Counted from the first letter of the stretch, positions 2,179-22,234 are shown. The stretch: DNA of 64,000 nucleotides from Bugula neritina (GCA_964035545.1 OZ037768.1:10448741-10512740), one strand, 5' to 3'. Notes: generated by a model not told the origin, from the letters alone. Translations and numbers: made by a program.

Positions 2179-2562
2179 TAAGCATAGTCTGATATAAGAG
2201 CATTGACCATAACCTATTGCACTAGCATCTAAAAAGTGATGCAGCTTAGTTTTGACAATTGTATCAAAATTAGCTTAATATAAGCATCTAGGTATTGCTA
2301 CATTGTCTAACATGTTAAATTCATGTTTCCAGGAGAACAACTGAGCACTAACAGCTTCATTTACATATAGACTGCAAAATCTTTTTGCCACACAGTATAA
2401 AAAGGAGATAAAAAGCCTAGGGGTCAAATAAAGATGCTACTGTTGACAAAATTCCACGCTTTGTAGCTGGCTCGGCTTGTTTGAGATTCATTGAGAATTT
2501 AAAATTGCCAGACTGAGTGCACCATTTAATGCCTAATGCTCTTTCTATGGGCAGAACACTGT

Positions 2563-3193
2563 TGTTGTAGTGGAATTATGGACTTTAGACTTATTCAATT
2601 CTCATTCTACATTCTCATTTCCTTACGCCCAGCTACACCCCACATTAATATTAACTTTCCATTGTTATACAGATTAGAGACAATTAATGTCATCACAATA
2701 GCCAAGCTGTCTCCTACTGTCTGTAACATGTACTAATTTCGTTACAATTATAATTACATTTTCGCTTTGAAGTCAGTTGCTATACGTCAAACACCCTGGT
2801 CCTGCAGCTTCGTGGCTTTATCCTTATATGGAGATGCAGCCACCCTTGTAAAGGCAGTAACCTATCCTGAGATAGCTGACGTGGACCAACCGGCAGGAAG
2901 CCTAAGTATTACAGCCACTCTTGTAATACTGCAGCCTATCCTGAAGCAGCTGACGTGGAGCTAACCGGCAAGAAGCATCTTGCTACACCCAACAGCTATC
3001 TGAAGTCACTTCTCTGTAAGACCCAGCTTCAGGTAGACGCACTCAGAACGAGAGGAGTTATCTACAATCTACAAGGTAATTACCATAAAGTATATGCATA
3101 TAATACTGTTATAGTAAATCACTAAGGCTTAGCCATATTAGTAATAGCTGTACAGTAAGTTATAGCGGGATACCACAAGTTCCCGTTATAACA
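2563..3193 (+). repeat. 5' LTR of the env-bearing Gypsy element
   Basis: Direct repeat of 21185-22234, starts TG and ends CA, followed by a PBS. It contains an internal duplication (cctatcctga...ctgacgtgga...aaccggca twice) that is single in the 3' LTR. Confidence 0.9.
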
Positions 3194-3195
3194 TT

Positions 3196-3206
3196 TGGTG
3201 GAGGTA
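3196..3206 (+). promoter_or_regulatory. Primer binding site, probably tRNA-Ala
   Basis: TGGTGGAGGTA lies 2 nt after the LTR end and is complementary to the ...UACCUCCACCA 3' end typical of tRNA-Ala. Confidence 0.75.
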
Positions 3207-3687
3207 CCATTTCGGTCTCCCCTCTCGTATTGCCTAGCATTTAATTGCTGATCACTGAGGTTAACCACTCGGTTATACTTGGCTTAGGTAGCTATTACTG
3301 CCAAGCTATTGTATTGACGGCTCCCACAAGCTTGAGGACAAGCTATTTTTAACTTAAGGTGGAGTTTAGAGTTCATTGAGTGTATTAAAAATCACTTTGG
3401 AATAACCACAAAAATAGGCCTAAATAATAATTGAACATATTACATACAGAACTGGTCCCACGACACATAAATTAAGGCAATACCTAAATAAGCGCTATAG
3501 AAATACAATAAAAAATTCTAGTGGTTGACCTGGAGTCCCGGTATCTAATACCAAACAATATATTAGTACTGTCAATTTTGAATTACAAGACTCAACTCCC
3601 TTTTTATAAACTTTATTATTACTTGTTGCTGTGTTATCAACACTACTTTTGCTGTTACAGAAATTAGTACCGTTAAACAAAACGAAC

Positions 3688-4800
3688 ATACCCACCGCCA
3701 ATCCATTCCAAACGCAGATAATAGCAAGCGTGGCACCCAACTTGGATAGCCTGCCATCTTTTTCCGGCGACTCTACTGAGTCCTGGGAGAATTTTATAGA
3801 GAGGTGGGAAGTCCTGGTGGCCCCCAGCGATATGATAACGAACAACTAGCCCTCGCCATACCTGCCAAGCTCACTGGCTCAGCTTGGCAGACATATCGAA
3901 AGGTAGTGAAACAGGCGCCCGGCTGTGCCAGCAACTACACTGCACTTAAACCCAAACTGGCTACAATGTTTCAAAGTAGCAACCCACTGCTAGGGAAGAG
4001 CCTCTAGAAACTGTCACAGGGGAAGAAGACTGTTAGAGAATTCTTCACAGAAGTAGTTTCACAAGGCCAATCGGCATTCCTGGATATGCCGGAGGAATAC
4101 AGAGATAAGGTACTGACGAACGTCTTCATAGCAGGGTTGAACGAAGCCCATCAGAGGGATATCCTTCTGAAGGGTGAACTCACCCTGCAGCAGACCTTAG
4201 AGGAAGCAAAAAAGCTGGAGGCAGTAGACGGGGCACTCAAGACTCAAAAAATAAATTTCATAGAGTCAGAAATAGTCGCTGAAGTAAATTACACCTGGAG
4301 CCAAGCAGAACTCATAGCTCCTCTGCAAAAACAAATAGACGGTCTGGCTGAACTAATAAAAGCTCAGTCAATAATATCTAAGGAGCAAGCGGAGAAAAGT
4401 TACAGAAGCAATAACTACCAGCCCAACCGATACCGTGGTAGAGGACGCGGTGGTAACCGAGGCAACAGAAAAGGTGGCTATAACCAACCACAGCGCTACT
4501 ATAACCAAGGCGCCCACAACCAACATCAGGCCCCTTTTAACCAACATCAGGCCCCTTTTAACCAACAGAGAGGATCATACAACCACCAATCACTACACAG
4601 ACACAATAATGATCGCACAGGTCAGAACTACGGCAATGGGCGTAGACAAAATCCTTGGCCCTGCAAATCTTGCGTGATCCGGCATTATGGGAGCAAATGC
4701 TCTAATGTAAATGTCGTCAGCGACCTCGGTCCTGACGAGTTTGCATTCCAGTTCTTAAATCAAGATCCAGGCCAAGAACACGTCGATGCCGTAGAACTGA
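3688..4800 (+). pseudogene. gag: Gypsy Gag (capsid plus CCHC knuckle), decayed
   Basis: LPSFSGDSTESWENFIERW capsid start, LSQGKKTVREF motif, RG/N/Q-rich region, CX2CX3HX4C knuckle at 4662-4700. Lesions: 1-nt loss in the C-run near 3821 and TAG at 4005-4007. The start is inferred as ATG mutated to ATA at 3688. Confidence 0.85.
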
Positions 4801-4850
4801 CTCCCAAAGCAAGAAGACCGAAGGCCAAAAGTAGAAGAGGTGGCAAGAAA

Positions 4851-6864
4851 TTCTCAGTCATAAATGCAGTACAACTGGCCATGTTATGCTTGCTAAGCTG
4901 CTTCATTGGCTGTGGAGCGACCCCGGTAGAAGCAAAAAGCCCCATGGTGTACGGCTCACACCATACTGACCAACCCCACTTGTTCCGACTGAACACTAAC
5001 TACACCTGCCCCGGACATGACAAGACTGACCCCACGCGACAGCCCCAACAGACAAAAATCATGGTATACAAACCTAACACGATAGAGTGGGAGTCACCAG
5101 CTTACCAATGCAAGAAGTTCAAATCAGTAGTCACCACGTTAGTGTCTCTCTTCACCGACGTGAAAGTCCGGAATGCTCACATAGAGAACCGGCCTATCAC
5201 GCGGGGAGAGTGCATCGACATGGTTGCCTCTAAACACTGTGACACGGGCGAGCTTAAGAGCAGAAATGGTGTCTTCACTACGCGCAACAAGGTCGAAGCA
5301 GAGTACAAGCACTGCTGCAAGAAACGATTCTTCTCGAAGAATCAGTGCAGCATAGTTAAAGCGACCGTGTACAAAAGGCATGAGGATAAGGAATTCGAGT
5401 CCACTGCAGGTGATGTCCGTCATTGCAATTATGACGAAGGAAGCTGCAGATTGGACGACGGTTGCATTCTCATATGGGAACCACGGAAGCAGATCCACTG
5501 CAAGCATACAGAGTGGGACATCGAGGAAGGCACCTTCTTCGACAACCACTTCGTCAGTAGTGACCATTCAATGGCCTTGACGTTTGCCCAATATGGAATC
5601 AACTCGACGAAGGACTGCCATGGCAAGAACATGTTGATGTCAGACCAAAGGCTGATGTTAAGGTTCATGACGCCACTCCACAATGTTACCATTCGCAACA
5701 ACGTCACAGCCACATATCAAATTGTAGGCTTGTATGCGTCTACAATAAACGCAGTAGCACAAGCTCTGGCGTTAGAACAAATCACCACTGCACAAAAACT
5801 ATTCTGGACTTCATACTACTATTCGTGTCACAACACTGCCCAAACCATTAACCTCATCACTCTCTTACTTGAAAGACATCTCACAACAGCAGCAAGACAC
5901 GTTGCAATTGAGTAACGTGGTCGCGAAAGCCGGCCTAGGCTACTTAGAGGTGTACCCCTGCACTGAGTTGGAAAGAACTTCTTACCAACTACTGGAAATG
6001 AAACACAACAACTGCACCAACTACTTGCCGATACAAATATCTATAGCTAGTCTCGAATCCATTGGATATCTGGACCCTATAAAAAACATAATACACCCTG
6101 ACTCATACAACGTAGACTGCACCCACAAAGAGAAAGTTCCTGGGAAATTGGACGGTATTATTTACTTATATTCATGGAACGAATCTCTAAAACTGGCCCC
6201 AAACACTACAATTCTATCCCTGCCAAACATCAACTTAGGAGCTACTCCCTTGGAATTACACGAGAACATCTTCAGTTGTGCACATAGACTGAATCGGACT
6301 GATTTTAGTCATCACCACTCCTTAAATGCTATCCTTTCAACACTCAACCGCCAAGCACAGGTGTTGAAAACCGTTGGAGTTGTTAGCTCCTCACACTATA
6401 GACTAGACAAAAATAGAATAGAGACTCAAGAAGGCATACTGGGTAATTCATATTTCTCCTTCTTGTTCGGAGGTCATGTAGCCTCAGTATATGAATTGTG
6501 GACCATGCTAGCAAATCTCATTGTGACGATTGCTTCAGTTGTCTTCGTTTCAAAGAAATTATACTATCACCTGTGCATCAGATACATCTGCAAAAGGCGT
6601 GGCGGAATCGTAGTAGATGCTGTGGACATCATAGAACAAAGTAGAACACACCAACCAACAGCAGAAGAGACTAGGACAGCCACGGAATTGCATTCTTTAA
6701 TAAACCCCACTCATTCCCAAGTAGAAAGTACAACCCCCATTTCTGCTATTAACTCAAACACCCCACCAGCAAGGTTATACCCTGCACTTGAGGATATGAC
6801 CGAAACAGATGACATCGCTTGGCCTTCTTGGACCAAGCAAGCCAGGCAAAAGTCTTCACAATGA
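4851..6864 (+). pseudogene. env: Envelope glycoprotein, class III fusogen-like (gB/chuvirus/rhabdovirus G-like), in frame with gag
   Basis: Signal peptide FSVINAVQLAMLCLLSCFIGCGATPVEA. Cys-rich ectodomain (AYQCKK, ITRGECIDMV, CRLDDGCILIW, TTAARH, LEVYPC, CTNYLPI, GYLDPIKNII..DC) with many NxS/T sites. TM anchor near 6480-6550 and a cytoplasmic tail. One frameshift near 5902. Confidence 0.85.
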
Positions 6865-7184
6865 CTAGCCACGCCATTGCCGAAAACCGCTCCCCAAGTA
6901 TTGGGAATTCTGGATAGTCGCACCTGTCGAACAACAACAATAAGGGCAGAGGTAAACGGCAAGAGGTGTACCGCGTTAACAGATGCTGGCGCATCCATAA
7001 GTATTGTGAACTGCAATATCGCTGCCAACTTAGGGTTGGCACTACAACCACAAAAGATTAAGGCAAGGGGTGTTACCAACAGCTCCTTAGACATTCTCGG
7101 GAAATCGGACGTAGTGATTACAATAGGCAAAGACACAAGAGTAGAACATTCACTCTTCGTGGCCAATGCAATTACTCACGACGT
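6865..7184 (+). pseudogene. pol: Pol N-terminus: retropepsin-type aspartic protease, truncated
   Basis: AEVNGKRCTALTDAGASISIV active-site motif (D-T/S-G variant). Cut off just before the expected ILG motif. Same frame as env after TGA. Confidence 0.88.
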
Positions 7185-7349
7185 TTACTGAAGTGAACTC
7201 GATATTTTTGAAGTAAAACTTGAAACTTCAAGTTAATACCTTTAAATACCTTTTTAATACCTTTAAATCCACCCCGTTTTCCTTTCTGCTTTGGCCCGCG
7301 GAGCTCTGGGGGCTTCCAGGGATCGTGGGGTTTCTGCCGCTTCTTAGGT

Positions 7350-8156
7350 CCGTGGGCAGCTCGAGCGGCGGTGTCCTCTTGTGCCGCATCTCCAGCAACG
7401 GGTAGCTGGTCTGGGAGTCTCTACTCCTGGTCTCTTGTACTCCATGGGATTGCTGTATGTTATGGTCGCCACCAACTGTCCCAACATAGTCAAAAAGCGG
7501 TCGACCTCTGTCTCCAAAGAAGGGCTAGCAGTAGCGGCAGCTACTCAGACCGGATGGTCTGGTTCTCTAGTGGTTCGCGGGATAGTCTCTATCGCTCTAT
7601 AGAGTTGCTCGGCCCCCAGATATGCCTCGCTTTCCTGGATTGCAGCCTCTTTTGTGGTCACTCCTCTCGCTTGTAACTGGTGGTGGAGGCCCAAATTGTT
7701 GAGGGATTGTACAAAAGCCTCGAACGTATAGCGCCGTCTGTGTGTTTCTGGCAGGTCGCTATACGCGATCCGTGCCAGTCTCTTCACCAGAGTAGCGTGG
7801 TCCGGAAGTGGTGTACATGTTTTGCGGAGCAGTCCCTGTAAACGGGCCTTGGCGTCTGCGACAGGTATGCCAAAACGGGCCCGTAGCGCAGCAATGATCC
7901 CGTCTACGCTAGGTCTCAGCCCGTACGGCTTGGCTTGTTCCGTCAGTGCCATCCGTAGTTTTATCAGGGCTACTCTCGGCGGCCATTTTGTAATGGCTGC
8001 AACTTCATGGAATTCCCGAATAAATTGTTCAACATCTTCAAGGCCCGTGAAGGCGGGAGCCTCTAATGTATATTTATATGCCTCCTCTTCGGCCTCGGGA
8101 GAGTTTACGATAATGTCTCGCTCACCTTCTTCAGTTGAAGCTGTACTTTCGGCCAT
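7350..8156 (-). pseudogene. gag: Gypsy Gag of the second element
   Basis: APAFTGLEDVEQFIREF...ALRARFG capsid motifs. CWRCGTRGHRRSSC (CX2CX4HX4C) lies near 7355-7400, beyond a premature stop. Confidence 0.85.
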
Positions 8157-8198
8157 GATGCTCTAATGTTTTTCCATCGTCTCCAAACAGTAGCTAGG

Positions 8199-8216
8199 AT
8201 CCCACCGCTGCCACCA
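8199..8216 (-). promoter_or_regulatory. Primer binding site, tRNA-Leu
   Basis: 18-nt complement of the tRNA-Leu 3' end AUCCCACCGCUGCCACCA. Confidence 0.9.
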
Positions 8217-8484
8217 CTGTTGTGATTTACACAATACTAATGCCTGGTTCCTAGCTTGTAATTATGATTTGGTTATCCGCAGCAATATAGGGCTTGTGAT
8301 AAGATTAAAAGAGATTTATTTACAATTACATACTAATAAAATGATATAAGAAAGCGCACGGAATAAAGTATTACATCTTCCTAATTGCTAGTACACTCTC
8401 TCTACTGACAACCCTCTCGTTACGCATCGCTGGGGGCTGTGGCTAGGGGGACACGTGGACGCGCGTATTGCGCGCTCCACTACA

Positions 8485-10128
8485 ATAGCACCGCGCACCA
8501 TAGCGGCAAGCAAACAAGCTAAGCACTACTATTAGCAATAGCGTGCCTAGCCCCAAAATACTTATTATAAGGCCCCCATTTTGGTCCTCCTGAGCTGAGA
8601 ACAGCCCAGCAAAGTCGAATTCAGTAACGTTAGACCCTGTAGCATAGAGTGGCATATAAACTAGGAATGCTTACTCAAAGAGGCAATTTGATTGATATGA
8701 CTATGATGACGACCCTATACTGCTACTGCTTTAAACTAGACAATAGGTCTACTTACTAACCCCGCGTAACAGGCAGATCGGTAGTTGTTTCTAGGATATT
8801 CGGTGCTGTGCTGTACGGTGTAGAGGCTTCCCTGAGGCACTCTAGCACTCTCCCCCACCAGTAGTTACAATGTAACAGACAGGTCCAAAGGGCAAGGGTC
8901 CATTCAAGTCAATATAAGCAATAGCCTAGTGAATACATATATCAACCCCCCTCCCCCCCCTCAGTTAGATACTAACATATAACAGTCTGCTGATACCAAC
9001 AAATCTACCCCAATGCTTACTAACCCCTTGAGGAGTAAATAGAATAACGAATGGCAGGAGCCATTCCCTTTTCTTTTTATTGAGTGAGCAGCTTAACAGC
9101 TAGCAGTGGGTACCAGTGGCCCACTAGATCAATTATATATAATCATAACACAAAACACTGAAGCCGAAATACCCACTAGTTGAAGTTTTCTTTTTTTATA
9201 ATTATTATCTACTTACCCACTTATTTCAATATTAACCAGATAAAGATGGATCTATATGGGTGTATAAGTAACTAAAATAACTGTGAGACAAGTTACAACC
9301 AACAACACCCATCTCATTAAGTCTAATGACCATTATTGCCAAGTACAACTTCACTCTTGTTGATTAGAATTTTCTAATGTCAATACTACTCAACCAGACA
9401 TATTGACATAGTATCTATTAGTATTGACACCGCAACTAGTAGCAACACTGCAATTATTGTGGGTGGGTAATTCAGTCAGCAAACAATCCACTCATTAGTT
9501 TTACTTTAAACTTATAGTCGCAATACTGTACTGAAAATTTATCATTTTTTAAAAAAGAATTAAGTTTCAAAGTCAAATGGGAAATTACACTTAGTTTTGG
9601 TTATATCGTTTCAGGACATTTCCCTTCTAGACTAAAACTTTTACACGATTACAATTTTTAATTACTGAAGTAAACTCGATATTTTTGAAGTAAAACTTGA
9701 AACTTTAAGTTAATACCTTTAAATACCTTTGAAGACATAGAACACTTGGAAACACTAAAGGTTATAGAAGTGCGTCATTTGTTTTACAGTGTGGGCTAAA
9801 GGTTGGTAATTGTGTTAACTTTTTTTTACATGAACTCTCTGGTGTCTCTAATGGTTCTTGGTAAGAAGCTTACCATGGTACACTAGTGAGTTTGCATAAT
9901 TGGATGTTAGTTCACTGCGGGCAGAAGACCTAGTAGTTATTGACATATTTTAACGATCTCGTCTGATTTCGTCGTATGCCATTGCTAAGATTGAATGTTG
10001 TTCTTCTTTCTCCAGGATTTTCATGAGGAGATTGAGTCGGTAAGCCCTGCATCTCTGTTTGAGAGGCTGAAGGCCAAGCTGAGAGCATACCTCGGTTACA
10101 CTTTCTCGTCCCTTTTTTCCAGCAATAA
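8485..10128. repeat. Duplicated block, copy A (LINE 3' end plus about 1.2 kb of flank)
   Basis: Near-identical to 13424-15058. A third short piece lies at 7185-7267. Confidence 0.95.
9710..10128 (-). mobile_element. LINE 3' fragment (ORF2 C-terminus and tail)
   Basis: GRESVTEVCSQLGLQPLKQRCR...LPRTIRD and the AAAGGTATTT tail repeat. Same family as 14655-20650. Confidence 0.85.
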
Positions 10129-10413: not shown

Positions 10414-13355
10414 TAGGGGTAAGTGGGGCAGTCTGGACCGTTTTTTAGTTTTTTACATATTTTGAACACGCTATTGGTGATATGCACAATTTAACGAGAA
10501 AATATGTTAGTTTTATATGTTGTGCTGTCTATGAAACACTTAGATAATTAAACTTCTCTATTTTCTCCTCGTCACAACCAATTAAAAATGTCTTCTCAAA
10601 AGGTCCGAACTGCCCCATAGTAGGGGCAGTTTGGACCAAAAGAAACAATTTTGTTTGAACCACACAGGAATTTTTTTTGTTATTTAAATGTAAGTATATT
10701 GTGCACTCTATGTAACATACCAGCATTAAAAACATGATGTGATTGATATTTTACATATAACATGTCCATATATTCACTAAGCAATAAGCAATGTTGTTCG
10801 GATATAATAATGAACGTAATATAATGCTTCCATTAAGTTCTGTTGACTAGAACTATAGTTTGTTAGGAGTGTTGTAGACGGTAGACCTTCCATCTTGCAT
10901 ATACTGCGATAAATCAATGTTGAATGTGAGCTTTTTACACGTGCGCTCAGTACCACCAGAACTTGTTGGGGTAGGTAACAGAAGCACCAGGTCGCAAATA
11001 TCAACTGTAGCAACATCTTCTTGCACTGGTACAATAAACTGCCTGTTCCCTACGCTCTTATAGAATGATATTACAGCTGTATCTTCGTCACGTTGAATAG
11101 AGTGGACAACCCCAGGAAAACGACGAACATTTTTCTTTCCCCTAAGTGCTGCTAACACGTAGCTTCCAACGTTCAGTTTGTCTGCCGTTATAGCTTCCAC
11201 ATCAGCCACCTCGTCCTCACTCGATGGGTCATCAGTATCATCATCAATTGGTATGGCAAAGTCTTCCTCACTACTGCTGCTATCTTCCTCTCTAGCAATC
11301 TTTCTCTTTTTCAATATTGATGGTTTTTTTGTTTTTCTAGCAATCCGTTCCATTTCCTCTTTCTTAAGTTAAATCTTTGTTGGAGTGTTGGTCAGAATAG
11401 TTGTTTTTCTCTTTCTGTTGCATTGTTTGGTTTTTCTGGGTCCAGCTTTAGCAAATGGTCGTACCTGTTCCGGTGTGATAGCACTTGGGTTGTTGGTATC
11501 CGCAGAATCACTAGATGGAGATGTCTGGCCATCAGAAGTAGTAGTTTGCTTGATAGAATTGTCAGAAACAGAGGCTACTACACCATTACATTCGACTTCA
11601 TCATGGTTACTTGGTTGGGGGCGATCAGTAACATATGATGAGAGAAAATCATCATCACCAAAAGCATTGCGATCTATTGGGCAAATACCAGGCTTTCGGA
11701 ATCCGCTTAAGATGTTGCTGGGTGTCATGGCTCTAGGATAAGCTAAGCTTAGCAAAGATGCCATATTGTAAATTGATAATGTTTGGCCAGGGTTACTCAA
11801 ATGCCACGATGTACAAGCTTCGTTAAAATATCGCTTCAACGGGCCATATACTGCAATGTCCAGTGGCTGCAGTTTATGGCTGCAATGTGGTGGGAATGTT
11901 AACATCACCACTCCACTCTCCTTGGCCAAATCTATGGCATCTATGCTTGTGTGGCTATCATGATTGTCCATCAACAGTAAGACAGGCCTATCTTTAGATG
12001 CTCTAGTATGCAGTTTGAAATGACGAAGCCACTCTATAAACAGTTCTCTTGATATCCATCCTGATTGACAAGCAGCACCTATTGAACCTACTGGAGCATC
12101 ATTAAGCATGAACTCTCGATATTTTACTCGAGGAAAGATCAACATTGGGGGAATACTGTTACCACCAGCACTAACAGCGACAACCATTGTGATCAAAACT
12201 CCTCGCTCAGCTGATGTTACATGACCAACTTGTCGGCACTTTCTATCTGCAATGACCTTTGGTGGTTTGTGTACAGTTGTAAGGCCAGTTTCATCCATAT
12301 TGTAGATTTCTGAAGCAGCAAACTTATATCTTTCCATTACCCATTGAAGATTGTCAAAAAACTGGTTAACATTCGCTCTGTTAAAGGCGGTACCTCTACT
12401 GAGGCTGTTAGGCTCTGGTTTTCTTAAACTTAGATCTGTGTGTCGTTTCATAAAGCCACTGATCCAATCTTTACCTGCACATTGTTCATAATCCCATGAT
12501 TTAGGATATGTAGCACCTACTTTTTTAGCATACTCCCATGCAAACTCCCTGGTCTTTTTCTTAGAAAGCCCGTGGTTCTGCTTTGCTGCCAATTTTAAAT
12601 AGTCCTCCAACATCCTCTCTTGCTCAGCGGTAAAGACTGCACGGCTTGAAGTAGATTTGCTATATGACATGTTAGATCCCTTAACCTTAGCCTCATCAAC
12701 ATAGCGTCTGAGTGTAGTACGTGAGACATTAGAATTTCTTGCTACTTGACGCAGAGATTCTCCAGCTAAAACCAATTCTACAGCTTCCTTCATTGCCATC
12801 TCAGAGACTTTTACCCCCTGTTTCTTTTTCTTGTAACTCCTAACCATGATGACGATGTTTAATCTAAAACAGTAAACAGAAAACTCTTAAATTGTAAAGC
12901 TCTACTCCATATCCCTTAGTGGTAATCATGCATTCTGTGGGCGGGGCACTTTGGACAGCGGTCCAAAGTGCCCCTATGTGTATGGGCCAAACTGCCCCAC
13001 CTGTCAAAATTTATAATTTTCTTATATATCTCAAAACTTGATTTAGCAAGATATGTTAGCAATGCATGATGATTAACTATGGTCATAGATGTTTGCATGC
13101 ACCAGATATGAATAAATTGTACAACACACATGACTTCAAAAATCTCCATTGAAAATAGTTTATCAAATTTTATTTATAAATATCTGCTTACCTCTTCTTC
13201 TAGAATAGCAGCATGTGGACAAAAACAATATGGCAGACTTTTTACATCCTCTTCTTGGTTTTCCTAGAAGAAAGACAACTCAAAACAAATTAGATTTAGC
13301 TGCAGATTGGGTGGTCCAAACTGCCCCTGTGTCCAAACTGCCCCACTTACCCCTA
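10414..13355 (-). mobile_element. Complete pogo/Fot1-like (IS630-Tc1-mariner) DNA transposon
   Basis: TIRs TAGGGGTAAGTGGGGCAGT(C/T)TGGAC at both ends, flanking TA duplication, and internal copies of GGGGCAGTTTGGAC near 10602-10638, 12942-12998 and 13313. Confidence 0.95.
10853..12847 (-). pseudogene. pogo-family DD35D transposase (about 664 codons, one in-frame stop)
   Basis: N-terminal psq and CENP-B-type HTH domains, NMDETG, LLMDNHDSH and LQPLD with 35 residues between the last two Asp. ORFs 11369..12847 and 10853..11353 share a frame, separated by TAA at 11369-11371. Confidence 0.93.
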
Positions 13356-13399: not shown

Positions 13400-13823
13400 A
13401 TTTGGGGTGGTTCTATACTCTATATAGCGCCGCGCACCATAGCGGCAAGCAAACAAGCTAAGCACTACTATTAGCAATTGCGTGCCTATTCCCAAAATAC
13501 TTATTATAAGAACCCCATCTTGGTCCTCCTGAGCTGAAAACAGCCCAGCAGAATCGAATTCAGTAACGTTCGACCCTGTAGCATAGAGTGGCATATAAAC
13601 TAGTAATGCTTACTCAAGGAGGCAATTTGATTGATATGACTATGATGACGACCCTATACTGCTACTGCTTTGAACTAGACGATAAGTCCAATTACTAACC
13701 CCACGTGACGGGCAGATCAGTGGTAGTTTCCTCCAATTCCACGGGTGTACTGTAAAGCGTGGAGGCACTGCTAAAGCATTCTAAAACCCTCCCTCGCCAG
13801 CAATTGCAGTGCAATGGGCAGAT
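13400..13823 (-). other. Cryptic spliced gene or pseudogene for a small Cys-rich single-pass membrane protein (second copy at 8485-8884)
   Basis: Exon 13700-13823 ICPLHCNCWRGRVLEC...TTTDLPVTW between CAG and GTTAGT. A phase-compatible TM exon starts at 13575. Differences between the copies are strongly biased to synonymous sites. No start codon found. Confidence 0.5.
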
Positions 13824-15058
13824 CTGAAGGGCAAGGATCCATTCAAGTCATTATAAGCGATAGCCTAGTAAATGCATATATCAACCCCCCTCCCTAGTTA
13901 GATACTAACATATAACAGTCTGCTGATACCAACAAATCTACCCCAATGCTTACTAACCCCTTGAGGAGTAAATAGAATAACGAATGGCAGGAACCATTCC
14001 CTTTTCTTTTTATTGAGTGAGCAGCTTAACAGCTAACAGTGGGTACCAGTGACCCACTAGATCAATTATATATAATCATAACACAAAACACTGTAGCCGA
14101 AATACCCACTAGTTGAAGTTTTCTTTTTTTATAATTATTATTTATTTACCCACTTATTTCAATATTAACCATATAAAGATGGGTCTATATGGGTGTATAA
14201 GTAACTAAAATAACTGCGAGACAAGTTACAAGCTATACTTACATCAACCAACAACACCCATCATTAAGTCTAATGACTATTATTACCAAGTACAACTTCA
14301 CTCTTGTTGATTAGAATTTTCTAATGTCAATACTACTCAACCAGACATATTGACATAGTATCTATTAGTATTGACACCGCAACTAGTAGCAACACTGCAA
14401 TTATTGTGGGTGGGTAATTCAGTCAGCAAACAATCCACTCATTGGTTTTACTTTAAACTTATAGTTACAATACTGTACTGATAATTTATCATTTTTAAAA
14501 AAAAATTAAATCTCAAAGTCAAATGGGAAATTACACTTAGTTTTGGTTATATCGTTTCAGGACATTTCCCTTCTAGACTAAAACTTTTACGCGATTACAA
14601 TTTTCAATTACTGAAGTAAACTCGATTTTTTTGAAGTAAAACTTGAAACTTAAAGTTAATACCTTTAAATACCTTTGAAGACATAGAACACTTGGAAACA
14701 CTAAAGGTTATAGAAGTGCCTTATTTGTTTTACAGTGTGGACTGAAGGTTGGTAATTGTGTTGACTTTTTTTTTGTATGAACTCTCTGGTGTCTCTAATG
14801 GTTCTTGGTACACTTGTGAATTTGCATAGATGGATGTTAGTTCACCGCGGGCAGAAGACCTAGTGGTTATTGACATATTTTAGCGATCTCAACTGATTTA
14901 GTCTTATGCCATTGCTAAGATTGAATGTTGTTCTTCTTTCTCCAGGATTTTCATGAGGAGATTGAGTCGGTGAGCCCTGCATCTCTGTTTGAGAGGCTGA
15001 AGGCCAAGCTGAGAGCATACCTCGGTGACACTTTCTCATCCCTTTATTCTAGCAATAA
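13424..15058. repeat. Duplicated block, copy B
   Basis: Near-identical to 8485-10128. Confidence 0.95.
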
Positions 15059-16632
15059 ACCTCACTGCCCTGTGCTGTAACATTTCCAGAGACTCGATGT
15101 CTTTAGCTAATGTTGGATCCCATACGGTATCTGCATACTCGAGGATGGGGCGGCCCAGACTAGTGTAGACCAGTAACGTACCTTCTCTGTGGCCTTATAT
15201 AGAACATGTTAAATTGCTCCCAGAATTTTCAAGTGTAATATGCTGATCAAATTTAAAGTTTGACTGCATTACAACCCTCAATTATGTTGAGTCTACCCAA
15301 TCTATCTTTGCTTCACCTTGCTTGTACAGAGGTTTGTTATTTTGATTGCCAAACGCTATGATTTTGCATTTACCTTCATTGAAAGGCATTTACCAATCAA
15401 CTGACCATTTGTGTATGGCATTGATGTTTTCCTGGAATGTTGCAGCGTCTTCTTTTGTGTCAACAGCCTGATACAGTAGCGTATCATCAGCATAAAGGCT
15501 TACACTGCAGTTTAATTTTAGTGGGAGATCATTAATATATATTAGAAATAGTGTTACACCTAGGACTGAACCTTGTGGAATCCCTGAGGTTACTTCTAAT
15601 TCTGAGGAAAATTTTCTGTCAATAACTACTTTTTGTTTTCTATGTGTCAAAAAATTTTGAATCCAGTTTACCTGTTGTGGATGTATTTCTGGTATTAGTC
15701 TTAATTTTTGCATTAGTAGACGATGAGGCACTTTGTCAAAAGCCTTTTTGAAATCAAGTACCATAGCATATGTGGTTTTTATTGTTTCCTTAGTTTTTGC
15801 TAGTTCATGGTATATGGCACAGAGTTGTGTTTCACAAAACCTGCCTCTTCTGAATCCGTGTTGTCTGTTGTAGAGAAAATCATGTATGGTTCAAATAATG
15901 AAGTACAATGTGTTCCATCATTTTGCATGGGATACTAGTTAGTGATATGGGGCGATAATTACTTGCTACCACCTTATCTCCACCTTTGTGCACTGAGGTG
16001 ACATACGCAAGCTTCCACTGGGCGGGTAACTTTTCTGAGTCTATTGAGGCTTGAAATACCTGTTTTAGGCACACAGCTGACATCATGACATCCAAAAGTA
16101 AATCTGGTTTGCGAATTCCATCAGGTCCTGGAGATTTTCCATTTGATAAACTGTTTATCAATTTAATGAGACCTTCAGTAGTTATCTCTGTAGGTGCTGC
16201 CGCAGTTTTTCTAGTTGAAGAGTGTTTGAAAATTGCTGATCTTTACAGAATTGATTCTGAAAATATTTGTTGAGGATGTTTGCACACTCTCGCTTCTTCA
16301 GTGATTTTTCTTTGTCAACTATTCAATTTTATACTGAAATCGCTATTTGACCTAATATTTTTAGGTGCTTGTAAAAAGGTTTAGAGTTACCTTTTTGAAG
16401 TGGTTTGCACAACTTTTCTATTAAATGTTCTCTTTTTTCTGTTGACATCCAGTTTTACTAGTTCTTCTTTCTGCATGGTATTTATGTATAAAATATGTGT
16501 CGCCAATCTCTTTATACTTTTTCCAGGTTCTTCTACTTTTTTGTATTAGTTTTTTCGTTTTCCTATTCATCCATTCTGGCCAGCTGTAGTTTTTTGGATA
16601 TAGCAACTTTGTGGGGATATTGTTGTATTTTT

Positions 16633-19085
16633 TGTGGGTTGAATAGAACTAGTGCCTGAACATGCTCTTTGTTAGAGAGAACAAGATGTGTTGTACAGTT
16701 GAAGCAATCTTTATTGAGTCGAATAATATAATAATTAAGATCCTCTGCCATTGAGCTTCAGTAGTAGACTGAACTACACTGGAGCTCGCTGGTTTTTATA
16801 TACAGCAAGAGATAGGGTTTTTCCTTTGTTGCCGAATCGGAGGTCCAAAACGACGACCTTCGGCATTTCGGAAGTCCGAAATGCCGATCTCGGGCAACAG
16901 GAAACAAGCACATGCAAAGATCCACCACACACACCTCCCATCGGAAAGTACACTTTCCGATAAGAGGGAATGTGACACCAGTAACAAAAAGAAAAAAAAT
17001 GACCAATGCAGGGGACAACACAAGAAGTTTTACACAAAAAATGGTATGACAGGTAAAAATAAAAAAAAATAACAGCATGCGACACATAAACTACAATATC
17101 ATGCAAAATAATAAAAACAAAAGAACATGCTCCCTCCACCAGTGTCAACATAAAACAGTCTTATTGCTGGTCTGTGTCGCCTGCCCGCTCCAGACGGCTC
17201 ACGCGCCGTCTTAGCTCCCCCAACTCCTCCTCATATCGCCTCAGGCGCAGGGACCGGACCTCCTCCTCCAGCTGTATGGATGCAGTGTGGCCGGTGGCGC
17301 TATGCCGGGGTCGTCTTCTTCCTCCCGTCGCCGAGGGTCGCTGACTCAGGCCCGGAGATCCGGACCTGCCGCCTTCGACCCGTGCCAGCACGACCCGAAG
17401 TGGCTGGGTGGCCGCTGGTTGAGGTGTCACGACGGGCTCCTCTTCTACCTCCCTGATTGGGCGGCATGCGGGAAACCCCTGGGCGAAGGTAGCCCGTTTG
17501 CGGGGGTCCGCGACATGGGGCAGCACCAGGTCCCGGAATTCGGGGAAACTGGCCTGATCCACCGCAAACGTGTGGCCCGTGTGGCAGCGCGAGATGCGCT
17601 GATGTCTCAGCACGTAATCGCGCTGATAAGAAAATTCGCCATACGGGCAAAACACGTTAATGTAGTGCTGCGGGGCGTGAACCCGCAGCCGCCGTGTGGA
17701 GGAAAACTTCCTCCGACACTACTGGCAGATGCGGTTGCCCGGCTCGCCGCATGTCTGGCCAATTTTCAGGTTGGTTTCCCGGGAAACCCAGTACTGGCGG
17801 GCAACCAAAGCCCGAGGCAAAGCCAGTATCTGGGAGCTATCTTCCTTCTCTGTGGGCTCCCCACCGAGCAGTATGCCCTGCTCCTCCCCGGCTGAGAGCT
17901 GGAGCTCAACCGGGTTAGACCCAGGGCCACTTGCGGTGGTGGGAGGCACCCCGGTCGGTGGAGCGGCGCCCTGCTGGCTGCTGGGAGTCGGAACAGGGGC
18001 CGGTGGAGGGGGGGAGTTGGTATAACTCGACCTGACCTCATCTACATCCATACAATTCCCTACAACAGATAGGAGAGGCTGTGACAAGCCGATCTCTCTA
18101 TCGCCGAATTTCGGCATACACTTATACGAGACTAAGCTACAAACTGGGGGCCGAGATGAGTCAGAGAGTGTGACTGAGCCCACGTCTTGGTCCAACAAGA
18201 AGTCGTGGACAGGGTCACCTTCCAGATCCATCTCGGTCTCGGGTTCTAATAAGTCAGATTCTAAAGAATCTAACAAACTCCAATCAACATTAGCTCGGTT
18301 GGACTCCGTTTGTGGAGGTTCCAACCTTAAAGGAATACCTGTAGTGACGTTAGTAGTTTCAATGAGTGTAGCATCCATGTCCGAGTTGGAGTTTGGTTGT
18401 GATTTAAAATTATAATTCAAATTTTGTTCGTTAATTTTCAAATTGAGTGCTGCTGGCGCGGTGGCTGTAGTAACAATGGCCGAGCCTCGTGTTTCAGAAT
18501 TATTACCTGCAACGGCGATGGCCACGTGATCCGTGGGAATTCCCATTAAATATTGAAATGACAACTCAGGCAATCGCGGCCCCCCGAAATTCGGTCTGAG
18601 TTTTCCTTCTGTCGGTGGAATTCTCTGGAGTATTGGAGGAAATTGCCACCCAAGGCAGGGTAGTCTGTAGAATTAGGGGGACTAGGATCACGAGGGGATA
18701 ACTCCAGGCGTCCTCCTGCATAATCTGCCAAGTATCTAGGAGGTTTTCTGTCCCTCTGGCTCCTTTCAAGCCGTACGGGTTCTGTCAGGGCTTGCGATTC
18801 TTCGACTACTGCGGTGGGGGAGGGGGGTCCTGTCATCACTGGCGCTATGGGCGGGGACGTCTTCCTCCAGTTGGGGTGGTACCCTCGGGGCCTGTGATTG
18901 CCGTAATTGTCGCCCCTGCCTTTGTTGCTGTTCTAGTTGCTCCAGTAGGGCGGCCTATTCACGTGCTGCCTCTCTCTGAATGACAACTTTCACCTCTCTG
19001 GGTTGGGTGACTCTCCCTCGATGGTTGGGCTGGCGATTGGGCTCTAAGAGGGGTGGAGCCTGACCAAAATATTGCCATTTTGGGC
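16633..19085 (-). mobile_element. Third Gypsy element, 3' fragment (integrase tail, accessory ORF, PPT, 3' LTR) inserted in the LINE
   Basis: GC-rich block with the RLERSQRDRKPPRYLADY integrase-end motif. LTR 16633-16929 (TGTGG...CCACA) with TATATAAAA and AATAAA. G-rich tract at 16930-16940. Confidence 0.82.
17161..18573 (-). pseudogene. Accessory ORF: acidic and Pro-rich region, C2H2 zinc finger(s) and C-terminal coiled coil
   Basis: ORFs 17719..18573 and 17161..17655 are the same frame split by one TAG. The joined sequence gives CQxCRRKFSSTRRLRVHAPQH, a canonical C2H2 finger. Confidence 0.75.
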
Positions 19086-21176
19086 TCTGGCCAGTCCTTG
19101 TGTAAAGTGATTCCACATAGCATTAGGGTTTGTCATTTTAGCCAGCTGGTTAGTTACTTTTTGCATCAACTCATGGTATTTGACTATATTGACATGTTTG
19201 TATAGTTTAATTTCTTTTGGCAGTGATAAAAGCTCTTTTGGTTTATGTTGGTTTAGTTGAGAAGTTACTAAATAATGATCACTTATTTCTGGGGATATTA
19301 CGTCAATGTTTTTCACTAGTTTAGGAGAATTAGTGCATATTAGATCAAGGGTGTTACCAAAAACATGGGTTGGCAATTTTACTAGTTGCTGAAGGTTATT
19401 TTCTTTTAGGAAAGTCAGGAAGTCAAGGTGAATTTTTTGTGTTTGGCGTTTTGTTTAAGGCAAGCTGTTTGCTATTCTGTTTCTGGAAAGTTCATGTCGC
19501 CTAGAAAATAGTTTTGTAATCAGGGTGTTTTTCCATGACTTCTTCATTAGCAGCTCTTAGTTGATCTATGTTTTGGAGGTATACGTAAGGTCTGTAGTAA
19601 CAGCAGATTAAAATATTTGGCTCTATTTTAACGAAGACGAGTTCTTTAGTAGTGGTCAGGTTTATTTGTCTGGGGTTAAGATCACTATCTAGTGCAACAA
19701 GCACTCCACCACCTCTATGATTTCGATCTTTTCTGAATACAATTTTTTTGAGTTAGGGATTATACCTTTGCTCTGTATTGAGCAATCAAGATGGGTCTCA
19801 GTGAGACATATGATGTTAAAATCAGCACTTGAAGATTGTAGATCTGCTGTTTTTCCTTTAGCTGACCTGATGCTAGATAAGAGCATTGTTAAAAAACCGT
19901 TTTCTTTGGGGGTTTGTGCTGGTTTCATCACTTTCCATTCCCCCGATGGCTGTTTTTGTTCAATGTGTAGGTTTCTGATACGGTATTTTTTCTCAGCATC
20001 AGATTGTTAGTACTCTCTTATCTGTTCTCTTAGAGCCCATTCCTGGCTTCTTACTTCTTGACACGTGTCCAACTTACAGAAAATATTTTTCTGCTTCAAG
20101 CCTGAGTTTACTCGCTTCACGAACTCCCACTTTTCAGTCTCATTCTCAAATGTGAGCTTTATTGGTCTGGTATCTCGTGTTATCTTTTGTTCTTTTCCGT
20201 CTCTTTCCAGTTTTTTCTTGCAGCCTAGCCTGAAAGCCACAAGCGGGGACCTCAATTTCTTGAAACACTTTTGTTTCAAAAAGTTGTTCACCTGGTCTAT
20301 GGCTTGAGTCCCTTCTTCTTCGGCTATGCCATATAAAATTGCATTCAGTTTTCGTGATTCTGTTTCATTCATTTGGTGTTGCTTTTGAATCAATTTTTCT
20401 GCATTTTCATTAGATTCAGCTGCAATTTTGTATATGATTTTTGTTTTCTTCTCGGTGTTTGGAGTTTTCTGTCGTAATCGCTTTTAGTTCCAGGATTTGG
20501 TCATTGCTTGATTTTAAAGCAGTCGCATATGTCTGTTGCATTCTAGTTATTGATCTTTCAATCACATCTAACTTGTTCATGGTGGTCTTGTGTTGGAAGT
20601 TTAAATTTTCGCGGCCGCCATGTTGAACCGGAAGCCGTAAGATTGAACGCTACTACTACCAGTACTACCGAAACTACGTACATATTTACATCGTAGACAT
20701 ACCAACTGAACCCACACTATGATACAAATGTAGAAATAATTAGTACTATCCAACTTATCATACTGGAAGACATACTGAAAACTGAAGCTTATAAAAGTAT
20801 TAAATTAAAATTGTGTCAACACAAAAACGTGGCTTATACTTAGAGTTATAGTTATGATGGAGAATCGCGCCAATTTACCGGTAATTACACAATGACACAA
20901 CCCTGCATTCTTGCCACCCGAACATCATCAATATTAATTAGATCCGCTGCAACAAATACTCGGAACAGCTTAACATTGACACCATTTCCTCATCCTAGTT
21001 AGTAATAGTCCCAGTAAGTAATAAGTAGAACGCTCTGATCAACACCAATTCACTCAGACGAACCACTTACTGACTCACCCCCATATCCCAATTTCGTAAG
21101 TAGAACCTTATTATAATCTCAACCTACATTATGATCACATCAGACACATAGCAGGAGCTATGCTTTTTTTTTCGCT

Positions 21177-21184: not shown

Positions 21185-22234
21185 TGTTGTGGAATTATGG
21201 ACTTTGGATTTATTCAATTCTCATTCCACATTCTCCTCTCCAGACCCCCAGCTCTACCCCACATAAATTAACTTTCTATTGGTATGCAGACTAGAGATAA
21301 TTAATGTCATAACAATAGCCAAGCTGTCTCCCACTGTCTGTAACATTTACTAATTTCGTTATAATTGCAATTACACTTTTGCTTTGAAGTCAGCTCTGAC
21401 TCGTCAAACATCCTGATCCCTGCAGTTACGTGGCCCTACCCTTATATGGAGATGCAGCCACCCTTGTAAATGCAGCAACTTATCCTGAGCAAGCTGACAT
21501 GGATCTAACCGGCAAGAAGTCTCTTGCTACACCCAACAGCTATCTGAAGTCACTTCTCTGTGAGACCCCGCTTCAGGTAGACGTAAGCCAGAACGAGAGG
21601 AGTTATCTACAATCTACAAGGTAATTACCAGGGTTGGGGTAATTGTAATCTGTAATTGTTTGTAATTAATTACATTTTTTCAAGTAATTGAATGTAATTT
21701 GTAATTGACGTATAAAAATGTAATTGTAATTAATTACATTGCTAATGTAATTGAATTTTACAATAACTTTATAATTACATAACAATTACTTCAAATTTTT
21801 AAATCTTAGAAAGTTCATATTTTACCTGCCTTGCCTACTGTTCAATAAAAAGTTCAGAATAATTTAATGTCGTATTTATCACCCTATTCGTTACTGTTGA
21901 GAACAAAGAAGGTTTTCAGTTGTCAAAATTGCCCCTGGTAGTTGGACCCCAGAAGTGAGATTATATAACTTTTATTTGTCTCTTGTGAGAACAAAAGTAC
22001 TTGTAATTAATCACATTACCATGTAATTGTAATTAATTACATTTGTTTCAACTGTAATTGTAATTCGCAAATTATCATGTAATTGTAATTAATTACAGTC
22101 ATATGTAATTGACCCCAACCCTGGTAATTACCATAAATTATATGCATATAATACTGTTATAGTAAATCACTAAGGCATAGCCATATTAGTAACAGCTAAG
22201 TTGTAGCAAGATACCACAAGATCCTGTTACAACA
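21185..22234 (+). repeat. 3' LTR of the env-bearing Gypsy element (contains a MITE)
   Basis: Direct repeat of 2563-3193 once 21629-22123 and one TSD copy are removed. Confidence 0.9.
21629..22123. mobile_element. Non-autonomous hAT element (MITE)
   Basis: 12-bp TIR CAGGGTTGGGGT and 8-bp TSD GTAATTAC (21621-21628, 22124-22131). The empty site is in the 5' LTR near 3076. Subterminal GTAATT repeats. Confidence 0.93.

Follow-up and report, generated by a model that had tools for sequence, protein, structure and literature searches.

A Gag-Env fusion with a gB-type envelope protein and a candidate readthrough stop before the protease in an LTR retroelement of Bugula neritina

Retroelements that place env ahead of pol have been described before. 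The planarian Burro/GYPSM1 was called the first case of env lying in frame between gag and pol (Arkhipova and Yushenova, 2019; PMC6431247); its env resembles mononegavirus fusion glycoproteins and forms part of one giant ORF of ~4,900 aa that also includes accessory domains and for which a stop before the protease is not reported. Non-canonical nematode ERVs likewise have env before pol (Sacco et al. 2022, as cited in PMC13524379), and GAG-ENV-POL elements with a gB-type env were described for Bryozoa, Nematoda, and Platyhelminthes by Chary and Hayashi (PMC13524379), whose prefilter tolerated up to five stops. These include the bryozoan HSV/gB-type “ancient errantiviruses” of cysteine type C2b, especially Cpal_errantivirus_4, _5, and _6, which share gene order and a gB-type env with the element studied here: over the first 45 aligned positions, its env and that of Cpal_errantivirus_6 agree at about half, with an ES[TP]AGDV.HC block in common, the likeness to this and the other C2b rows being by eye only. 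Word searches found no mention of gag-env fusion, readthrough, frameshift, or polyprotein in the main text of PMC13524379, neither readthrough nor fusion is mentioned in the available text of its preprint, and the searchable text of PMC13517186 held no retrotransposon passage.

A second group of known systems uses an in-frame stop to set the ratio of two products. Such stops occur at gag-pol or pol-env in MuLV (gag-pol), SIRE1 (pol-env), and Tca2 (PMC2194720), and in alphaviruses as the type II readthrough motif UGA-CUA (PMC3159437); UGA CUAG has also been cited as favoring readthrough in mammals (10.1101/2021.04.18.440353), while a yeast reporter showed no readthrough directed by the sequence around the in-frame UGA of Tca2 (PMC2194720). 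In the element described below, by contrast, the stop falls between the Env cytoplasmic tail and the protease. Literature searches turned up no earlier account of an env-pol junction with a stop or readthrough, a scope that leaves supplements or the authors' repository as places where one may be annotated. The novelty that the initial annotation had attached to the layout as a whole was overstated: the Gag-Env-Pol order itself is already published, and the part without a precedent in these searches is the env-pol stop with its putative readthrough.

The window analyzed here is a 64,000-nt stretch of Bugula neritina DNA (GCA_964035545.1 OZ037768.1:10448741-10512740), and all features of its two gag-env copies lie on the plus strand. 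The more complete copy (copy 2) opens with a probable 5' LTR (2563-3193; TG...CA, 5' edge placed by eye) that matches a second copy at 21185-22234 at 85-89%, followed by a primer-binding site (3196-3208) complementary to the 3' end of tRNA-Ala, by eye against the tRNA-Ala end given in supplement 1 of PMC13524379. The second, solo LTR-like copy at 21185-22234 itself contains a further insert (~21630-22120), which bears a short target duplication. Behind the primer-binding site lies the N-terminal half of a capsid (3706-4007; tblastn with proteins P0003 and P0160), in which a frameshift (near 3,820) and a stop (4005-4007) interrupt the reading frame. One stop-free frame (4008-5915) then carries the C-terminal half of the capsid, an Arg/Gly/Gln-rich region, a zinc knuckle (CX2CX3HX4C; 4662-4700), a spacer, a predicted internal signal sequence (4806-4934), and the first half of env, which bears out the initial reading of a capsid and knuckle continuing without a stop through a basic patch (4806-4850) and a hydrophobic segment (4869-4919) and VEA (4926-4934) into a Cys-rich glycoprotein. 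The ectodomain (4935-6492; eight N-glycosylation sequons) changes frame near 5,900 and runs on through a predicted transmembrane (TM) anchor (6493-6558) and a predicted cytosolic tail of ~100 residues (6559-6861), with a YPxL late-domain motif at 6775-6789 and a conserved WPS block at 6820-6831, to a TGA at 6862-6864. An aspartic protease, also placed after env by the initial annotation, follows in frame (6865-7184; Pfam Asp_protease_2, E 4.8e-6), with its catalytic Asp at 6982 within a DAG motif rather than DT/SG. It is cut off by an insertion at 7185, where a second LTR-type element, on the minus strand (7185-8480) and containing a short gag-like frame at 7545-8162, has entered.

The order gag, env, pol, the gB-type ectodomain between a signal and a TM anchor, and the 5' LTR with primer-binding site are those of the published GAG-ENV-POL gB-type Ty3/gypsy elements; env as a separate ORF 3' of pol, as in canonical gag-pol-env errantiviruses, is not the layout found here. 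Gag and Env share one frame, as in Burro and the nematode ERVs, but the uninterrupted Env-Pol frame of those elements is absent. The protease was the sole pol domain present: reverse transcriptase (RT), RNase H, and integrase of the element were not found within the 64-kb window, and the 3' LTR was likewise absent from this copy. Pfam gave no match for the gag or env frames of the window and Rfam none in 2300-8500, and related DNA was not found in scans of metagenome contigs or viral contigs.

A single open frame from 3688 through pol, as first proposed, was not what the copy contains, being interrupted by two frameshifts, the stop at 4005-4007, the TGA at 6862-6864, and the insertion that ends the protease at 7184. 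Position 3688 itself reads ATA, with no start codon, and capsid homology starts only near 3,710. Because other letters (500 and 1,280 of them) precede 3685 in two contigs of other copies, and because relatives have roughly 300-350 residues N-terminal to the capsid, the Gag start has probably been lost from the window copy. Contigs from four sequencing runs in three studies covered all 30 bins of the element, which makes it a multicopy family, and the window copy is a defective member of this multicopy LTR retroelement. Two of the runs covering it were guessed to be RNA, contigs by their nature being unable to show expression. By contig comparison, all four runs depart from the window at 4005-4007 (the stop) and near 5,900 (a frameshift), and one does so at the frameshift near 3,820. 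Because other copies read differently at these sites, all three internal breaks are damage; the TGA at 6862-6864 apparently is not. In three of the four runs a contig joined 5085 to 6385, skipping 1,299 nt of the window, a multiple of three, whatever letters lie at the join; the ends are not GT..AG, and most of the ectodomain would be lost while both membrane segments are kept, so this is possibly a natural env-less derivative that retains the topology. None of the eight joints listed had GT..AG ends, though such contigs can show presence only and say nothing against splicing.

The fusion of Gag and Env is genuine and is a family trait. It recurs in a truncated copy at the start of the window (copy 1, 1-2178), in which gag (1-651) is separated from the signal and env (1173-2178, with a stop at 1974-1976) by a solo-LTR-like insert (652-1172) of 521 nt with TG...CA ends and a 5-nt target duplication, lying inside the knuckle. 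The frames on either side of the insert are in phase, as had been claimed for this copy once the solo LTR is removed, and the two copies are 88.5% identical in gag and 92.1% in env. Beyond the window, a full HMMER scan gave 336 matches at E<=0.001 (150 listed), and 169 proteins were gathered, 158 matching the env profile and 122 the env N-terminus. At least 150 residues lay upstream of env in the same chain in 68 of these 122, and 50 of the 68 carried a knuckle; removal of five cluster duplicates and one BEL/Pao protein left 44 nonredundant relatives with knuckle and env in one chain. Many of 64 proteins scanned against Pfam likewise combined Retrotrans_gag or zf-CCHC with a Monjiviricetes/gB fusion domain, and two chains ran from Gag to integrase without a stop: P0146 (Caenorhabditis tropicalis, 2,450 aa) and P0159 (2,327 aa). 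Named near relatives came from the bryozoans Bugula neritina (the cluster of P0152, 52% identical to P0151) and Watersipora subatra. A protease-site motif, V-[NHD]-x-[VIL], was considered as a general feature right after the knuckle and was rejected (2/42, against a background of 2%); a narrower form, counted in five near relatives, had 13 occurrences among 3,424 cytosolic and two among 2,631 lumenal residues, a post hoc count that serves as a lead only.

A shared frame does not by itself fix how Env is made, and most Env might instead be translated from a Met near the signal on a subgenomic or spliced RNA, in which case the Gag:Env ratio would not be 1:1. The window has an in-frame ATG in good context at 4881; a Met stands just before the signal in P0151 and P0001, both other copies of the window family, and in P0014; and 54/122 records start near env (<150 residues before it), a class in which fragments, internal start calls, and real stops are indistinguishable. 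Against such an RNA, Met was not clearly enriched before the signal (24 of the 44 relatives versus 19 expected), and the stretch from knuckle to hydrophobic segment was open over a median of 146 codons in the same 44 chains. We consider a separate env RNA unlikely and favor translation of Gag and Env as one chain. The 25 residues before the hydrophobic segment were net positive in 41/44 relatives, and a model of the natural copy P0151 (mean pLDDT 76) showed an N-terminal helix (residues 2-16) corresponding to the predicted signal, a TM helix (544-580), and a disordered tail. Together with the lack of a clear Met excess, the charge bias and modeled helices support the Gag-signal-Env polyprotein and the topology predicted by the initial annotation.

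Env itself is of the gB-type class III, an assignment drawn from profile and model comparison. A profile of 58 env homologues matched herpesvirus gB structures (E 1e-14), and the top Foldseek match was HSV gB in the PDB (E 2.6e-21) and nyavirus G among viral models (E 3.8e-31), with low TM-scores of about 0.24; phmmer with the window env half found no match in the PDB. Flavivirus and alphavirus structural polyproteins also carry capsid, internal signal, and glycoprotein in one chain. The resemblance is an analogy only: the window element combines LTRs and a primer-binding site with a retroelement Gag and a fusogen of class III. The env family was also seen in other settings: P0139 is a BEL/Pao polyprotein with env 3' of pol, NADAR and SPRY domains share the chain with env in P0026 and P0149, respectively, and in P0032, P0062, P0065, P0075, P0080, P0100, and P0103 a large insertion, of about 100-350 residues or longer, separates the ectodomain halves.

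For the window lineage, the proposal of an open frame leading straight from the Env tail into Pol was not supported, as the TGA at 6862-6864 intervenes. A quick tree was built from 50 env rows: the window itself and 57 TM-bearing proteins minus 8 cluster duplicates. It placed the window in a 10-row clade (SH-aLRT 95) in which 10/10 rows ended 78-144 residues after the TM segment, a row being scored as a stop where its protein record ends, so that contig ends or decay are possible record by record. Among the 40 rows outside this clade, 24 ran into a protease, 10 ended at a similar distance, and 6 did otherwise. The nearest outside pair includes P0094, whose in-frame protease is 36% identical to that of the window, and the order PR-RT-RH-IN, that of a Ty3/gypsy-type Pol, was found in the more distant env relatives P0052 and P0146. 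P0146 and P0098, both from Caenorhabditis, show the layout gag-env-pro-pol with an open env-protease junction, unlike the window element. The nematode ERVs of Sacco and colleagues reportedly form one continuous gag-env-pro-pol ORF. Within the window's clade the tail ends aligned in a single [WF]P[ST] block, and the last residue was Gln in 6/8 lineages against 5.4% Gln in the tails, with the window family counted once and related lineages treated as independent; outside the clade, 1 of the 10 rows ending without a protease had a terminal Gln, and these 10 rows weigh against tying such endings to a readthrough stop. The stop after the env tail is thus apparently shared by the closest relatives of the window element.

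One could still hold, with the initial annotation, that active copies have a single open Gag-Env-Pol frame and that the TGA is damage in the window copy. Fully open chains do exist among relatives (P0146 and P0159), and the window copy bears three other lesions. Yet its own clade ends at this place throughout, and P0153, another copy of the window family, terminates at the same residue. The other lesions, moreover, show as differences in the runs, whereas the 40 best-supported differences listed for the four runs include none at 6862-6864 (979 others lie outside that list); in two runs contigs match the window as far as 6867, and a variant (X3) lacks 12 nt just upstream of the TGA with the frame kept. 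An open frame in active copies of this lineage is accordingly quite improbable, and the stop more probably belongs to the element. Its setting, CAA-TGA-CTAG (6859-6868), supplies the UGA-CUA type II context with an in-frame downstream ORF, as read in one copy, and CTAG follows only 11 of the 2,456 TGA triplets in the window (0.45%). Type II (UGA-CUA/CGG) sites also have an extended 3' stem-loop; the one downstream of this stop is weak (z about -2.2 to -2.7; at z -2.5, 4/200 shuffles were as good, and 4/55 element windows fold better).

From these data we infer, with a probability of roughly 0.6, that Gag-Env is the main product and that Pol is made by occasional readthrough of the in-frame TGA, the 3' context of the stop coming from one copy. 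One genomic RNA would be translated; Gag would be cytosolic and tethered by the internal hydrophobic signal, signal peptidase would free Env into the ER lumen, and the TM anchor would return the chain to the cytosol. There the UGA would stop most ribosomes, yielding Gag-Env, while a minority would read through to give Gag-Env-Pol, so that structural protein would again outnumber enzymes, as is usual, though through a switch located behind env rather than behind gag. Cleavage by the element's own protease would next release Gag from its tether and Pol from the tail of Env, and ESCRT would be drawn in for budding by the tail's late-domain motifs. Whether the clade as a whole has rebuilt its structural-to-enzyme switch along these lines, with a membrane-spanning Gag-Env, Pol arising through UGA readthrough where the tail ends, and ESCRT budding leading from one unspliced RNA to a budding particle, is in our judgment an even chance.

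Two further accounts leave Gag-Env as a product and seek Pol elsewhere. If Pol came from its own RNA, through a spliced gag-to-pol message or an internal promoter, the stop would be a true end and its context chance. Pol would then need not be made behind two membrane crossings, a junction promoter is known in Tca2 (PMC2194720), and the weakness of the stem-loop speaks for this account too; left unexplained would be the in-frame protease, the rare CTAG context, and the recurrent terminal Gln, and the sister lineages P0094, P0156, and P0159 carry the protease directly on the Env tail. A separate pol RNA seems to us unlikely, if slightly less so than the separate env RNA weighed above. Alternatively, the clade may be nonautonomous for Pol, supplying Gag-Env and borrowing enzymes from open-frame relatives. 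No close relative with the window's protease in a long protein was found in a word-index search, itself a weak one, and no RT lies in the window; set against this are a recognizable protease kept in frame behind the stop, contigs of other copies that continue beyond 7184 with different sequence, and close env relatives annotated with full POL in PMC13524379. We regard borrowed enzymes as the most improbable of the alternatives and retain readthrough as the preferred source of Pol.

The cytosolic tail offers a separate line of evidence. Late domains are defined by the motifs PT/SAP, PPxY, and YPxL. Such motifs were present in 7/8 tails of the window's clade, where shuffled tails averaged 0.46 and 0/5,000 shuffles reached 7, and in 6/24 protease-continuous tails, for which the shuffle mean was 1.2. 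These motifs fit a cytosolic tail, and their presence suggests real, ESCRT-driven budding, as judged from tail sequences. Published single-frame gag-env-pol elements leave open how a low enzyme dose is achieved and how particles assemble from a membrane-spanning polyprotein; the window lineage offers a testable answer in a leaky stop after the Env tail, for which sister lineages without the stop are natural controls.

Other mobile elements crowd the same window. An open 505-codon frame (11369-12886, minus strand) encodes HTH and DDE_1 domains of a pogo/Tc5-like transposase and is flanked by two ~1.65-kb repeat copies (8485-10128 and 13424-15058). Farther along, decayed LINE-like RT fragments (15390-20480, minus strand; RVT_1, E 8e-23) have a GC-rich minus-strand stretch (16700-19000) nested among them.
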